In this document: piece by piece, positions 1,490 to 26,010 of the stretch
How positions within the stretch are numbered: position 1 is the first letter of the stretch
How the letters are laid out: every line of letters begins with the position of its first letter
Source: a virus
Taxonomy: Duplodnaviria > Caudoviricetes
Strand: one strand, 5' to 3'
IMG/VR virus record: IMGVR_UViG_3300025803_000081
Span: 1-27,342 of that record
Length of the DNA stretch: 27,342 nt
The notes under the pieces: model-generated
What the model saw: only the letters and a program-made list of their open reading frames with translations
Told to the model about the DNA's origin: nothing
Databases searched by the model: none
Translations under genes and position numbers: made by a program

Positions 1490-4033
1490 ATGCACACTAG
1501 TCTGGATCAGGCACTCGGTCGTCAGCCCCGCCTGAACAGGGTTGGGCAAAGCCTCTTGAACATTGCTTCCGGGGCTTCTGCTGCGTATTCACTACGTAGT
1601 CTAACTGGCGATGAGCCAAGGGCAGTCCGTATCCGTAGGGACGGGGACAACGAGGAGCGGGACTTTACTACTGCTGCACTAGGAACCGAAGCCGCTGATT
1701 GGACAAACGGCAAGCAGGAGACGGATCTTCCTGCTGACCTTGGTATTACTTCTTTTACTCAGTCTGGATTAGCGTATGGGCTGGCGAGTTACGGAATTAG
1801 TCTAGCTGGTGGAGCAAGTCTTGACGACTTCGATGGTACGTTTACTCCGAGTCCAGACGGCCTAACTTGGTCAAATGGCTCAGCCCTTGGTGTTAATTTT
1901 ACGTTCGATACTAGTCTAAATAAATGGGATTTAAATTTTAATGATGGAACCAATTTTGGAAACATCACAATATCCAGCACCACCAAGTACCCTTTCCAAG
2001 TAACGAACTGGGGTTCTGCATCGGTAGCATCAGGTGTTTCAGGTTTACAGACGAACTGGAGTGACATTGCTGTGTATCTTAGTTTTACTCCCATTTATGG
2101 AGCAACAACAACTTACCCAACAGCGGAGGCTGCATACAGTCTCCGTAAGGTACGAAGCACCTACACAGGCGATGTCGTAAAAGTTCGCAGGGAATCCGAT
2201 AACACAGAAAAAGGGTTTACTGCATCAGAGATTTCTTCAGGTGCATTGGTGGATTTTGTTAATGCTGACGGAACTCAGTTTATGAATTTTGATGGAACGG
2301 ATGACGACATTACTACTCCCGCCCTTCTCCCTGCTACTGACGATTTTACTTTAACAATTGTAGCATTTATTGAATCAAATCCTTCTTCTGCAATGGGCAT
2401 TTTTGGTAGTGCTGCTAGTGGGTCGGGAAGACATAATATACAGATAAATACTGATGGTACAGTTAAGTTTTTCTGCGAAAATCTAGGTGGTACAGCTACT
2501 ACAACATCTGCAATAATAGCGAAATCAATAAACACTATTGTGCTTACTCGTACGGGTCAGACCTTTGAAATCAGTTTAAATGGTGGTGGTGCTGCCAGTC
2601 AAACGGGGTCGTCAGTTGTCTTAACTACGGGTAATAACAATATTGGGGACCCGTACGTTGGTGATAATTTTCAAGGTGTTATAACATCCCTCTCCGTTGC
2701 ATCAACGACTTGGGATGGTACGATTGCTAATGTCCCAGCGGGTTCTACTGTTAATGGTTCGCCATCTACTAACGCACTCAATGATGGCTTTGTTACTACT
2801 TGGTACGACCAATCAGGTAATTCTAAAAATGCAACACAGACAACGGCTGCCAACCAACCATTGATTGTTGAAAGCGGTAGCTTGCATACTGATGGTGGAA
2901 AGCCAGCCCTAAAGTTTAACGGAACATCTCACCGACTTGAACTTTCCGCTAAGGCGAGAATTGAAAATACATCTATATTTTCTGCCTTCAGGAGTAACAC
3001 CAATACTCAGGATTCAGTTTTATTTCATCTAGCTGTTGATGCCAGTAATGCTGTTAGCATCGGATTGGGTGACCTTGCTACTAGGACGGAATTAGGCTCA
3101 AGGCTAAGGGTTGGGGGTTCAAACGTAGTCAGTGTAGGTGACAATACATTTACCAGCACTAGTCAATCATTACTGAGTTATATAGCTAGTAGTTCAGCAG
3201 CCAAAATGTTTGTTGATTCAACGGAAGAAACTGATACAGTAGAAGCAAGAACTTCTGGTCCAAATAATCGAATAGGTGCAAGAGGCGATGATGACAAATT
3301 TTTCAATGGGGACATTAGTGAAATTATTCTCTTTGACTCCGACCAGACCAACAACCGGTTCAAGATTGAGTCCAACATCAACAATCACTACACCATCTAT
3401 ACGGCTGCACAAAACGGCTTCGTAAATACTTGGTACGACCAGTCAGGTAATAGCAGAAATGCTGTAGCTGCTGCTGATGCGAACGAGCCGAAGATTGTGG
3501 AGAATGGGAATTATCTGGGTGAGTTGTCCTTTGATGGTTCTAATCATACTTTAAGTATAGCAACTGTTAGTACTTTGGGTATTGATGGGTCAAATAACAA
3601 GTCAGCATTTGCGGTTGCAAGAACTACCGCAGGGGTTGACGGATTTGTTATTGCTGGAACACCCGGGGGTGCTGACTTTCGGGGTTTACGCTATCGCTCA
3701 AGTGCAAGCGGTGGAGCAGCTAGAGTTGAAGTATCAGGTTTTGGGCTTCAAGGTGGGGACTTGTCGGATGGAAACAATCACGTTTATTCCTCGATTTTCG
3801 ATGGTACGCAAACTAAGGACTTTGACGTTTCTCTTGATGGGTCAATAACCCAAGGCAGCGGAACTGACGCTATTGATACCGATGGTACTGCTACCTTTTT
3901 CATTAGCAAGACTGGTGGAAATGCTGCCGCAGGATTTACACGAGAGTTCATTCTTTACGCCTCCGACCAGACCGCTAACCGAACAGCTATCGAAACCAAC
4001 ATCGCCAACGAATACGGCATAACTTTATCTTAA
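1490..4033 (+). CDS. Tail spike / receptor-binding protein with concanavalin-A/LamG-like domains
   Basis: 847 aa, G/S/T/N-rich; two AAYSLR..(I/V)RR motifs, two GFV.TWYDQSGN motifs, LamG-like segment FDGTDD...FQGVITSL, motif FNGDISEIILF. Confidence 0.75.
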   Translation: MHTSLDQALGRQPRLNRVGQSLLNIASGASAAYSLRSLTGDEPRAVRIRRDGDNEERDFTTAALGTEAADWTNGKQETDLPADLGITSFTQSGLAYGLASYGISLAGGASLDDFDGTFTPSPDGLTWSNGSALGVNFTFDTSLNKWDLNFNDGTNFGNITISSTTKYPFQVTNWGSASVASGVSGLQTNWSDIAVYLSFTPIYGATTTYPTAEAAYSLRKVRSTYTGDVVKVRRESDNTEKGFTASEISSGALVDFVNADGTQFMNFDGTDDDITTPALLPATDDFTLTIVAFIESNPSSAMGIFGSAASGSGRHNIQINTDGTVKFFCENLGGTATTTSAIIAKSINTIVLTRTGQTFEISLNGGGAASQTGSSVVLTTGNNNIGDPYVGDNFQGVITSLSVASTTWDGTIANVPAGSTVNGSPSTNALNDGFVTTWYDQSGNSKNATQTTAANQPLIVESGSLHTDGGKPALKFNGTSHRLELSAKARIENTSIFSAFRSNTNTQDSVLFHLAVDASNAVSIGLGDLATRTELGSRLRVGGSNVVSVGDNTFTSTSQSLLSYIASSSAAKMFVDSTEETDTVEARTSGPNNRIGARGDDDKFFNGDISEIILFDSDQTNNRFKIESNINNHYTIYTAAQNGFVNTWYDQSGNSRNAVAAADANEPKIVENGNYLGELSFDGSNHTLSIATVSTLGIDGSNNKSAFAVARTTAGVDGFVIAGTPGGADFRGLRYRSSASGGAARVEVSGFGLQGGDLSDGNNHVYSSIFDGTQTKDFDVSLDGSITQGSGTDAIDTDGTATFFISKTGGNAAAGFTREFILYASDQTANRTAIETNIANEYGITLS

Positions 4034-4034
4034 T

Positions 4035-4283
4035 ATGGAAGAGAAACAATATCTTATCTACGACACAGAAGCAGAAGCGATCGCTCGTGCTGACGAAAAC
4101 GGGAAACGTATCGGCTACGCCTACTGGACTGTAGGACAAGGAACCAAGTGGGCTACAGCACCACAGGTGACCGCTGACGACAAGTGGGCGTTGCGTGTGG
4201 ACTACAAGTACGAACTAACGGATGCCGAAGAAGCAGCCCTTGTTCCTTACTCCAACGTGAACTGGCCAACTGAGGAAGAATAA
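4035..4283 (+). CDS. Small acidic protein, possible tail-spike accessory/chaperone
   Basis: 82-aa ORF immediately after the spike gene; function inferred from position only. Confidence 0.6.
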   Translation: MEEKQYLIYDTEAEAIARADENGKRIGYAYWTVGQGTKWATAPQVTADDKWALRVDYKYELTDAEEAALVPYSNVNWPTEEE

Positions 4284-4438
4284 TGCAGGACGTAATCTCA
4301 CGAACTACTCTAGGTACTGGTGGCTTTTTGGCTACCGTCGGGTTACAGCAGGTCAATGCTGTCATCAGCCTGTTCGTGGGTATAGCTACGTTGACGTATA
4401 TGGTTCTCTCTATTTACAAGATTATTAAAAAACTATGA
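4283..4438 (+). CDS. Small membrane protein, holin-like (MQDVISRTTLGTGGFLATVGLQQVNAVISLFVGIATLTYMVLSIYKIIKKL)
   Basis: 51-aa ORF not in track; TAATG and ATGA overlaps with neighbours; hydrophobic helix and basic C-terminus. Confidence 0.7.
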   Translation: MQDVISRTTLGTGGFLATVGLQQVNAVISLFVGIATLTYMVLSIYKIIKKL

Positions 4439-17232: not shown

Positions 17233-17269
17233 AAAAACCCCACCCCCCCGCTACGCAGAGAGATGGGGT
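17231..17269 (-). terminator. Intrinsic terminator of the leftward transcript
   Basis: Minus strand ACCCCATCTCTCTGC-GTA-GCGGGGGGGTGGGGT-TTTTTT: 15-bp stem with four G.U pairs that work only on this strand. Confidence 0.85.
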
Positions 17270-17319
17270 CACCACCAATCGAGGCCCACAACGGGAACAC
17301 ACACCCGGCCTCGGAAATA

Positions 17320-17478
17320 TTATACAGTATACGTACTCAGTAGTTCTTTGAGTCTACGCTTTTCGTCCTGTAGTTCCTTTCTTTGCTCGGTCATACGCTC
17401 GATGCGGTACGATAGGATACGGGACTCATTGCGGATCATTTCGATCTGAGTCTGTATGCGTTCTAGGTTTTCATTCAT
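17320..17478 (-). CDS. Small coiled-coil protein (MNENLERIQTQIEMIRNESRILSYRIERMTEQRKELQDEKRRLKELLSTYTV)
   Basis: 52-aa ORF not in track; heptad pattern; own promoter upstream and terminator downstream. Confidence 0.75.
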   Translation of the reverse strand: MNENLERIQTQIEMIRNESRILSYRIERMTEQRKELQDEKRRLKELLSTYTV

Positions 17479-17484
17479 AAATGC

Positions 17485-17513
17485 AAGCTAGGTATTTGTG
17501 TTTAATTTGTCAA
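17485..17513 (-). promoter_or_regulatory. Sigma70-type promoter TTGACA-N17-TAGCTT, 6 nt upstream of ATG 17478
   Basis: Perfect -35, 17-bp spacer, -10 with conserved T,A,T positions. Confidence 0.7.
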
Positions 17514-17522
17514 GTTAGAGGT

Positions 17523-17588
17523 TGGTGGAGGTGGCTGGAGTCGAACCAGCGTCCTTAACCGAGGTTAAGTCGAAATCCCTGCACCCCC
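17523..17588 (-). ncRNA. ssrA: Minimal tmRNA-like RNA: tRNA-like domain only, no tag reading frame
   Basis: GGGGGTG-CAGGGATTTCGA-CTTAAC(CTCG)GTTAAG-GAC-GCTGG(TTCGACT)CCAGC-CACCTCC-ACCA: acceptor stem with G3.U70, A73 and CCA, stemless tmRNA-type D-loop, 3-nt GAC linker, T-arm. Confidence 0.85.
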
Positions 17589-17912
17589 TTGTTTGTATTC
17601 CGGTAAGCCGAACTTCTTTCTCCACTTGGTGTACGACGAATGCGCTACGTCGCAGCACTCACAAGCCAGTCGATAGGTGTACCCATCATCACGCAGCCCG
17701 TCCACCTGCTCAATAATTTTTAACTTCTGTTCATCGGTCAGCCGTTGGCTGGGTTTTCTTTCGACCGTTGGGATTGTCCACTCAGCCGTGCCGTACTCCT
17801 CCTCCATGTACTCGATGTCCTCGATTTCTTTTTTGATTCTCTCGTGCGCCCAGTCCAGAAATTTACCCTGCTGGCTCCTGTCGTTGAAAAATAATTCGTC
17901 ATTGATATGCAT
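17565..17912 (-). CDS. Helix-turn-helix DNA-binding protein
   Basis: 115 aa; C-terminal LTDEQKLKII...TYRLACECCDVAHSSYTKWRKKF HTH pattern; TAATG-coupled to dnaB. Confidence 0.7.
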   Translation of the reverse strand: MHINDELFFNDRSQQGKFLDWAHERIKKEIEDIEYMEEEYGTAEWTIPTVERKPSQRLTDEQKLKIIEQVDGLRDDGYTYRLACECCDVAHSSYTKWRKKFGLPEYKQGGAGIST

Positions 17913-19237
17913 TACATAAACCTTCCTGTTTGGTGATAGAATTTTAAATAGTCCCCTACGTCACGTTCACCCTCACGATTCTTTGCTATCCTGTAAGAGA
18001 GTCCAGTGTAAGGGCCTCGGTAATCTTTGTCCTTGCTGGATTCAACATCTCCATTGTAAGGCCACATAAGCATCACGATGTCGGCATCGTTCTCAATATC
18101 GCCGGAGTCCTTGAGGTCGTACAGGCTTAGGCCTGTCTCCCTCTTGGCTCCTTCACGATTTACTTGAGCGAGCAGTACGATTGAGACGTTGAGGTCCAGT
18201 GCTATCTCTTTGATTCTGTGGCTGATGCCGGCGATCCCCTCTGCCTTGCTTAACTTTGAGTTAAACCCGATCAGTTGGAGGTAGTCAATGACGATGAGCT
18301 TAACGCCCTTCTTCCTGACTAGGTATCTGGACTGACTGGCGAGGTCATCAGCACCCTTGACTGAATGAACAGTACTGATAGGCAGCCCCGCTAATCGGTC
18401 AGTCGCTTCACTGAAGGCTGTGATGTCCTGCGGCGTAGCGTAACCCTGCTCAATGGAACGGATGTTCACTCCTGATATGGTCTGAACCATCCGCTTCATC
18501 AGTTGTTTCTGCGGCATCTCGAAGGAGAAGTAAGCAACGGGTGTCCCTTGGTCGATCATAGTTCTCGCTGTGATGTACAGTGCGAGTGCTGACTTCCCGC
18601 AGGAGGTGGGTGCTGCAAGTGTAAGCACTTCCCCGGCGGCGATCCCTCCGTTCCCTAGGAATCCGTCCAGCCTGCCGACATTTGTTTTGACTACATCGGC
18701 TACGTACTCACCGGACTGCATTAGTTCGATGTCCGATACGATGGAGTCCAAGGACTCCTTGACGCTGTACCCAAGTGAGTCACGTGAATTAATCTCGAGG
18801 ACATTGGTCTCGAGTTCGGACCGAATGTCATTGAACTCATAGCCCTCGCTGGTTGCCTTCTCCTGAGCGATCCGGCACTCCCGGATAAGTTTTCTCAGGT
18901 TAGACTTCTCGGCTACCAGCCTAGCGTAATGCAGGGCCTGTGGCTCCGTTGTAGCGGAGTCCATGAGGGACATGATACCTGTTACTCCCCCGATCTCATC
19001 CAGCGTATTTGACCCCTTCAGGGCCTCGCAAAGGTGGATCTCGTCGATGGGTAACCCAGTGTTGGCCAGCTTGTGGAGAGCTTCCCAGAGGAATCTCCCA
19101 CGTGCTGAATAAAAATCGCCAGCGTTGACGATGGTTGATGCGGTGTCGAAGACTGACGAATCGGATGCATCCAGACAGGATGCGATCAGGCTAGTCTCGG
19201 CTTCTAAGTTATGCGGTGGTGCGTTTTCTTCGTTCAT
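17912..19237 (-). CDS. dnaB: Replicative DNA helicase, DnaB family
   Basis: PPHNLEAE N-domain, Walker A AAPTSCGKS, FSFEM, IVIDYLQL, LAQVNRE, LKDSGDIENDAD, IAKNREG; start placed at ATG 19237. Confidence 0.95.
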   Translation of the reverse strand: MNEENAPPHNLEAETSLIASCLDASDSSVFDTASTIVNAGDFYSARGRFLWEALHKLANTGLPIDEIHLCEALKGSNTLDEIGGVTGIMSLMDSATTEPQALHYARLVAEKSNLRKLIRECRIAQEKATSEGYEFNDIRSELETNVLEINSRDSLGYSVKESLDSIVSDIELMQSGEYVADVVKTNVGRLDGFLGNGGIAAGEVLTLAAPTSCGKSALALYITARTMIDQGTPVAYFSFEMPQKQLMKRMVQTISGVNIRSIEQGYATPQDITAFSEATDRLAGLPISTVHSVKGADDLASQSRYLVRKKGVKLIVIDYLQLIGFNSKLSKAEGIAGISHRIKEIALDLNVSIVLLAQVNREGAKRETGLSLYDLKDSGDIENDADIVMLMWPYNGDVESSKDKDYRGPYTGLSYRIAKNREGERDVGDYLKFYHQTGRFM

Positions 19238-19379
19238 CCTGAAGTATCTCCATGATTGAACGTAAGCACTGACCAAGAGCTTTGTATTTCACCTGCACTT
19301 CTGGAGTGAACTTGTACGAATCAATTGAATCGTAAAGGTTAAGGGTGATTTCGGTGGCTTCTGATATGTGTTCGTTCAT
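19209..19379 (-). CDS. Small hypothetical protein (MNEHISEATEITLNLYDSID...ERRKRTTA)
   Basis: 56-aa ORF not in track, fills gap upstream of dnaB, A-rich upstream region. Confidence 0.6.
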   Translation of the reverse strand: MNEHISEATEITLNLYDSIDSYKFTPEVQVKYKALGQCLRSIMEILQDERRKRTTA

Positions 19380-25926: not shown

Positions 25927-26010
25927 AGTATTGATTGGTGTATTGATTGGTGGCTGTCTCATCAGTTGCAGTTGCCAACCTGCAAGACAGGCTCTCGCCT
26001 GTTTCGACTA

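Follow-up and report, generated by a model that had tools for sequence, protein, structure and literature searches.

Tag-less tmRNAs already described

tmRNA derivatives made of the tRNA-like domain (TLD) alone are already on record. The tmRNA of mycobacteriophage DS6A (tmRNA Website tmID 11587; Phage__Mycobacterium.9; JN698994, about 28478-28560), which has both tmRNA ends and no tag frame, is listed as 'TLD only' (PMC4131195). In vivo inhibition of tmRNA by an RNA that consists of the TLD alone goes back to Mao 2009, which both PMC4131195 and PMC11915505 cite. According to PMC4131195, inhibition by a similar TLD-only molecule was strong whether or not the molecule could be charged, perhaps through titration of SmpB; PMC11915505 repeats the inhibition and ascribes the test to the DS6A form, and SmpB titration as such has already been proposed. 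Message-less forms also occur in organelles, as mitochondrial tmRNAs (RF02544) and as CDS-less forms of about 65 bp in plastids of the Mallomonadaceae (PMC11915505). In print, phage RNA mimicry directed against trans-translation thus amounts to one phage gene and one 2009 experiment. We found no survey of TLD-only genes in phages in the literature, though more short forms from viruses may be recorded in the tables of the tmRNA database.

We analysed a 66-nucleotide element of this kind in a stretch of DNA of 27,342 nucleotides from a marine phage, hereafter the window. The preliminary description of this DNA knew of no tag-less tmRNA in a phage, a statement that DS6A overturns (PMC4131195, PMC11915505): the kind is already published, and this copy is a compact variant that overlaps a gene. 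New with this copy are the compact hairpin form, its layout of 25 + 4 + 34 residues and the fact that the HTH gene in front of it terminates inside the RNA. Both the DS6A RNA and the present one are phage-borne and share G3.U70, the stemless D-loop and the T-arm. However, the DS6A form measures about 80 nt, includes an internal loop plus a further small hairpin, is intergenic and lacks an encoded CCA, whereas ours is a plain hairpin of 66 nt that encodes CCA and overlaps the upstream gene. The organellar forms are message-less too, and those of plastids equal it in size (PMC11915505), but they are organellar genes, the mitochondrial ones served by a nucleus-encoded SmpB, whereas the phage element would meet the full tmRNA of its host. 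The same division into 25 5' residues, a tetraloop and 34 3' residues is found in the engineered Thermus TLD of PDB 2CZJ, which was crystallised with SmpB (PMC3985003, PMC3929946); that molecule, however, is a laboratory construct without CCA, and its loop is UUCG where ours is CUCG. Full-length phage tmRNAs (Streptomyces phages, mycobacteriophage Bxz1) are likewise phage-borne ssrA genes with the same TLD, but they keep the tag frame that this element lacks. Finally, loss of an upstream stop codon by RNA maturation is also predicted for the Carsonella smpB-ssrA overlap and in the nonstop regulation of arfA (PMC4131195); in Carsonella the overlap joins a full tmRNA to the gene of its cofactor, whereas in the window the RNA is tag-less and the gene is a phage HTH gene.

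A complete tRNA-like domain closed by a short hairpin

The element lies on the minus strand, from 17588 to 17523 of the window, its letters being as given in the preliminary description, and ends in CCA after the 25 + 4 + 34 residues. Sequence and Rfam place the 5' strand of the acceptor stem at 17582..17588, with G3 at 17586 and a predicted RNase P cut directly before 17588; positions 17588-17582 pair with 17533-17527 to form a stem of 7 bp. The following 12-nt D-loop (17570..17581) is stemless and ends in UCGA, as supported by the Rfam match and the covariation set; in tmRNA, this end is part of the elbow bound by SmpB (PMC3968760). Helix 2 (17554..17569), with 6 bp and a CUCG loop, is supported by the fold and by covariation, with changes on both sides at five of its six pairs. 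It occupies the position of the variable arm, as in standard tmRNA, and this hairpin replaces the pseudoknots and the tag frame. A GAC linker and a perfect T-arm (17534..17553; Rfam and covariation) lead to the 3' segment (17523..17533), assigned from the sequence and from comparison of elements, which contains the 3' acceptor strand with U70 (17529) and, at 17526-17523, the discriminator A and the encoded CCA. Acceptor, helix 2 and T-arm all form in the MFE fold (-24.4 kcal/mol), the stability of which is not exceptional (z -1.61).

In an Rfam search of the window, the element matches RF00023 from end to end (57.6 bits, gathering cut-off 47, E 2.4e-20), with 310 central model positions skipped in the alignment. 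The TLD identity proposed in the preliminary description is therefore sound; of the two programs that it named for checking, Rfam agrees, while ARAGORN calls no gene at the element. G3.U70 with discriminator A and CCA, the stemless D-loop, helix 2 and the T-arm are those of a standard tmRNA. The mRNA-like part, which would bring the pseudoknots, the resume codon and the tag frame, is absent, and no second piece occurs within the window, which may be less than the entire genome. The two-piece model RF04321 gives 17.5 bits (E 8.9), and the ends stand in standard order; the 3' acceptor piece does not precede a 5' coding piece, which rules out a permuted tmRNA. A tRNA-Ala is ruled out as well, there being no cloverleaf with D-stem and anticodon arm, no ARAGORN gene and no tRNA family in Rfam; nor did the Rfam search report an mt-tmRNA match for the element. 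As in TLD-only or CDS-less forms of the DS6A type, both TLD ends are intact, there is no tag frame, the length falls within about 65-85 nt and the structure is under selection across homologues. The element is thus a complete tmRNA TLD without the message region. It is present in a single copy within the window, and the search pattern was found in none of 300 base shuffles of the window.

Could this short form be a product of assembly or decay? ssrA is a common integration site, at least one of the loci retrieved by our strict pattern (L012) is an attachment-site fragment beside an integrase, and many genome matches of the pattern are mere 3' ends of full tmRNAs. It is nevertheless extremely improbable that the present element is a full-length ssrA collapsed in assembly, the remnant of a decaying gene or the attachment site of an integrase. 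Contigs of 1084 nt (run X5) and 176 nt (run X3), from independent public runs, span helix 2 with no insert and no joint listed there, and 17 fetched records contain the identical element, which argues against an artefact. Covariation of the stems argues against decay or collapse. An attP, attL or attR site is set aside, both ends being present and no integrase being found among the window proteins scanned. Covariation and bridging contigs thus already contradict all of these non-functional readings. In further public-run contigs the element is flanked by different sequence, and loose ends fall at 17522-17523 and 17589. These data are contigs and carry no information on expression: the element does coincide with a peak of depth in the one RNA run, X1, but this peak came from short contigs of relatives, which differ at 3 and 5 positions, and the same peak is seen in X3, a run of unlabelled kind, so it was rejected as expression evidence.

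Conservation and spread of TLD-only elements

The strict pattern retrieved at least 120 viral loci, with an estimated total of about 520 stretches in IMG/VR. The class is therefore common, and it is mostly unannotated because ARAGORN misses it. BLASTN against annotated phages returned partial matches only, with none of 247 records reaching 80% coverage. A second pattern, which fixed neither the 5' strand nor position 70, also gave at least 120 loci. Among the matches listed, 55 had a 7-bp acceptor and a full T-stem (37 unique), and all 37 unique elements carry G3.U70, neither base of which the pattern demanded.

Helix 2 was assessed in 119 unique elements chosen on acceptor and T-stem, with helix 2 left free; 35 are short (at most 71 nt to the discriminator) and 84 long. 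At positions 2-6 of the helix, 169 of 175 cells are paired in the short forms, against a shuffle mean of 96.5, and 390 of 420 in the long ones, against 188.5. In an alignment of 31 sequences, 8 of 11 pairs changed on both sides and covariation reached 0.784 versus 0.216; such shuffle-based tests are inflated by relatedness, but slid controls gave no more than 0.09-0.16. Stems that are intact and covarying, together with the retained G3.U70, argue for selection rather than decay. The preliminary description had read the intact stems in this way, and the homologues with compensatory changes that it envisaged do exist. Sequence, structure, covariation, alanine identity pair and wide spread in phages are established for the element, which is real, conserved and probably functional.

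Other features vary. An encoded CCA is present in 18 of the 35 short forms and in 28 of the 84 long ones, and the neighbours are diverse, with many long forms lying among head genes. One long form of about 79 nt (L002, L009, L019, L024, L031, L059, L061, L069 and kin) often separates the terminase gene from the portal gene, or the prohead protease gene from the capsid gene, and has a small extra hairpin, which covaries. The gene is accessory: among 27 helicase-relative loci, the RNA is present in 14 and absent from 8 (with some flank present), 5 ending too early, and it was not seen in phages C75C1 and P8625.

No smpB was found among the window proteins scanned, among about 106 neighbour ORFs of the viral homologues (104 of 125 listed ORFs plus 4 added) or among a further 81 of 141 neighbour ORFs examined, so the partner would be the SmpB of the host. 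A pattern scan of genomes gave 118 matches; judged by eye, more than half of these are complete tmRNAs of which the pattern met the 3' end, preceded by a GGGG that stands there by chance, and we discarded them. Full-length ssrA is kept in four of five bacterial genomes tested that have a short form, and smpB in all five. Saccharibacteria MAGs also have 62-nt TLD-only forms (L290, L311, L327) among genes without Pfam match, with a normal ssrA elsewhere. In another Saccharibacteria MAG, a form of 73 nt lies about 580 nt away from smpB (L303; G004:C12:3324-3396, 3975-4367), and full-length ssrA was not found in this incomplete 0.5-Mb assembly; the form may belong to the cell as a tmRNA without tag, or the assembly may have collapsed here.

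The stop codon of the upstream gene lies inside the RNA

The RNA sits close to the end of a minus-strand replication operon in the order Erf, SSB, DnaB, HTH gene, RNA, 52-aa gene and terminator-like hairpin. The DnaB-like helicase (17912..19276; phrog_19, E 1.4e-71) is followed by the 115-aa HTH-type gene (17565..17912; Pfam HTH_Tnp_1, 26.3 bits, cut-off 24.1). Behind the RNA lie a coiled-coil-like 52-aa gene (17320..17478), kept at the same place in relatives, and the hairpin that closes the operon (17236..17270), all on the minus strand. No sigma-70 promoter was found just upstream of the RNA. Just behind it, ahead of the 52-aa gene, is a promoter-like site on the same strand (17485..17513; TTGACA, 17 nt, TAnnnT), which falls under the threshold of the promoter scan; its motif occurs twice in the whole window, and a like site is present in L130, making two of the 20 loci examined, window included.

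The preliminary description missed that the HTH reading frame (17912-17565, 115 codons) runs into the element. Its last seven codons and its stop lie within the RNA, with TAA at 17567-17565, so that cleavage by RNase P would turn the HTH message, in other respects complete, into a nonstop mRNA. Where the RNA follows an HTH gene, it holds or precedes the stop in five of the six variants with DNA (window type, L130, L131/132, L274-276 and L414), in two reading frames; in the exception, L422, the HTH gene has its own stop about 100 nt upstream of the RNA. In L075, L210 and L212 the RNA comes after an intact DnaB stop, and in L210 it stands ahead of the HTH gene. An obligatory stop-codon overlap is rejected by these four loci. 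Among HTH homologues of at most 140 aa, 9 of 58 end in peptides resembling translated RNA and most of the others about where the RNA would begin, judging from the protein sequences. HTH genes without the RNA (L135, L277) likewise overlap the next gene. A tree of the HTH family, built from 45 rows with trimmed tails and leaving out repeat proteins and some of the remoter matches, does not show that the overlap arose more than once and is compatible with one inherited origin.

Over the wider set, ORFs of at least 95 codons enter the element in 9 of 26 short and 4 of 52 long forms, 65 of 78 elements having no such overlap; a comparable overlap is given for 273 of 115,660 bacterial t(m)RNA genes (PMC4131195), counted by a different method. 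In another phage group, lambda-type portal genes read through the element in frame, with lengths of 62, 65 and 74 nt, all 2 mod 3. These elements (L001, L005, L026, L050, L054, L206, L218, L287 and kin) lie in the 3' tail of the portal gene with the frame kept, and one portal-embedded copy was found in a Pirellulales MAG. In L016 (1104) and L046 (1854), the first G of the element is the last base of the TAG stop of a 390-codon gene. In L212 (797-1195), directly after DnaB, an ORF starts at the element and reads through it; by eye it resembles an HNH nuclease, a possible means of spread.

Is the main role of the RNA then in cis, as a tRNA-like cut signal that punctuates the operon and renders the upstream mRNA nonstop? 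The HTH or portal protein would then build up only under weak host tagging, compare arfA and Carsonella smpB. The missing HTH stop ahead of the RNA in two frames, the RNA 5' end near the point where RNA-less homologues end, the in-frame portal read-through and the overlap frequency relative to bacterial genes, counted differently, all speak for such a role. We nonetheless regard it as doubtful at best: most elements have no overlap, the RNA can follow an intact stop or precede the HTH gene, RNA-less HTH genes overlap their neighbour as well, the tree allows a single inherited origin, and any tRNA-like fold would do as a cut signal, with G3.U70 unneeded. To no greater degree do we credit a self-arming translation switch, whereby excision of the RNA would create a nonstop HTH message whose full-length product host tagging destroys until the RNA has accumulated and disables tagging, or releases the chain with an alanine tail only. 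Were this switch real, hundreds of phages would rewire ribosome rescue with message-less tmRNAs, and in some of them the dosage of a gene (HTH regulator, portal) would be coupled to it. The stop-codon overlap deserves one experiment.

Possible action on trans-translation

The elbow of the TLD is where SmpB attaches to tmRNA, whose 5' end is generated by RNase P (PMC3968760). In vitro, TLD with SmpB directs polyalanine synthesis that needs no template (Shimizu and Ueda 2006, cited by PMC3929946 and PMC2481249). The element encodes a message-less tmRNA head that is likely cut from the replication-operon transcript. RNase P and 3' trimming would release the free 66-nt RNA, and at the same time strip the HTH gene of its stop codon; AlaRS would charge it via G3.U70, and SmpB would settle on the elbow, being drawn off full-length tmRNA. 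The complex of Ala-TLD, SmpB and EF-Tu could then enter nonstop ribosomes and accept the chain but offer no resume codon; untemplated alanine would be added and release left to back-up routes. We lean slightly towards such an alanylated, SmpB-binding competitor that would lower ssrA tagging in the infected cell. It is favoured by the Rfam match, the invariant G3.U70, helix 2 covariation, the layout shared with 2CZJ, the published in vivo inhibition and template-free polyalanine synthesis, the lack of a phage SmpB at the loci scanned and the retention of full ssrA in most genomes tested. Competition and tag-less rescue, the two mechanisms offered in the preliminary description, remain the leading readings. 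As a natural RNA sized like the crystallised SmpB-binding fragment, the element offers an easy test object for the role of tag-less tmRNAs in vivo. Trans-translation is under study as a target for antibiotics, and the element would provide a natural lead for its inhibition.

Competition is not without difficulties. Blocking rescue could cost the phage ribosomes, a C-terminal alanine run may act as a degradation signal in the RqcH pathway, and the accessory nature of the gene also counts against it. Simple titration does not need a strict G3.U70, since inhibition was reported with or without charging; the invariant pair suggests that charging matters, and it fits equally a productive role, in which the RNA strips chains from stalled ribosomes and ejects the mRNA, the ribosome being recycled by ArfB, ArfA/RF2 or drop-off with Pth, as proposed for organellar CDS-less tmRNAs. 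These tmRNAs co-occur with SmpB (PMC11915505), TLD and SmpB are enough for A-site entry and peptidyl transfer (PMC2481249), and the 73-nt form near smpB in G004 could represent such a system. We still consider productive rescue unlikely, as the sole in vivo test cited in PMC4131195 and PMC11915505 gave inhibition, an RNA without a stop codon cannot complete release alone, and the G004 case may be a collapse. More improbable yet is an anti-defence decoy, a link that the preliminary description had raised, in the form of an abundant tRNA or tmRNA look-alike that absorbs an anti-phage RNase or offsets the stalling caused by cleavage. Such a decoy has a general fit only, with phage tRNA-like genes in highly expressed operons, the head genes around many homologues included. 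The anticodon loop is the usual target of tRNA-cleaving defence nucleases, and the element has none; its conserved features are those for SmpB and AlaRS, and no defence or counter-defence gene recurs beside it among the neighbour ORFs scanned.

Host and other features of the window

Verrucomicrobia phage P8625 has a protein that shares 63% identity with one encoded in the window, a weak hint at Verrucomicrobia as host, and phage C75C1 matches 8 of 33 proteins. In 301 genomes of the phylum of bacterial genome G006, the HTH protein was not found, and the tmRNA 5' pattern gave 8 matches.

The window contains further RNA candidates on the minus strand. A RAGATH-24 RNA (RF03049; 26543-26738) scores 47.1 bits, above cut-off, with one stem expanded by 94 nt. 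Right behind the ORF at 26382-26011 is a hammerhead type II ribozyme match (25948-26009; 40 bits, cut-off 37), a second possible RNA cut site on the strand of the element. On the plus strand, short tandem repeats lie in an ORF-poor stretch at the contig end (27140-27342).
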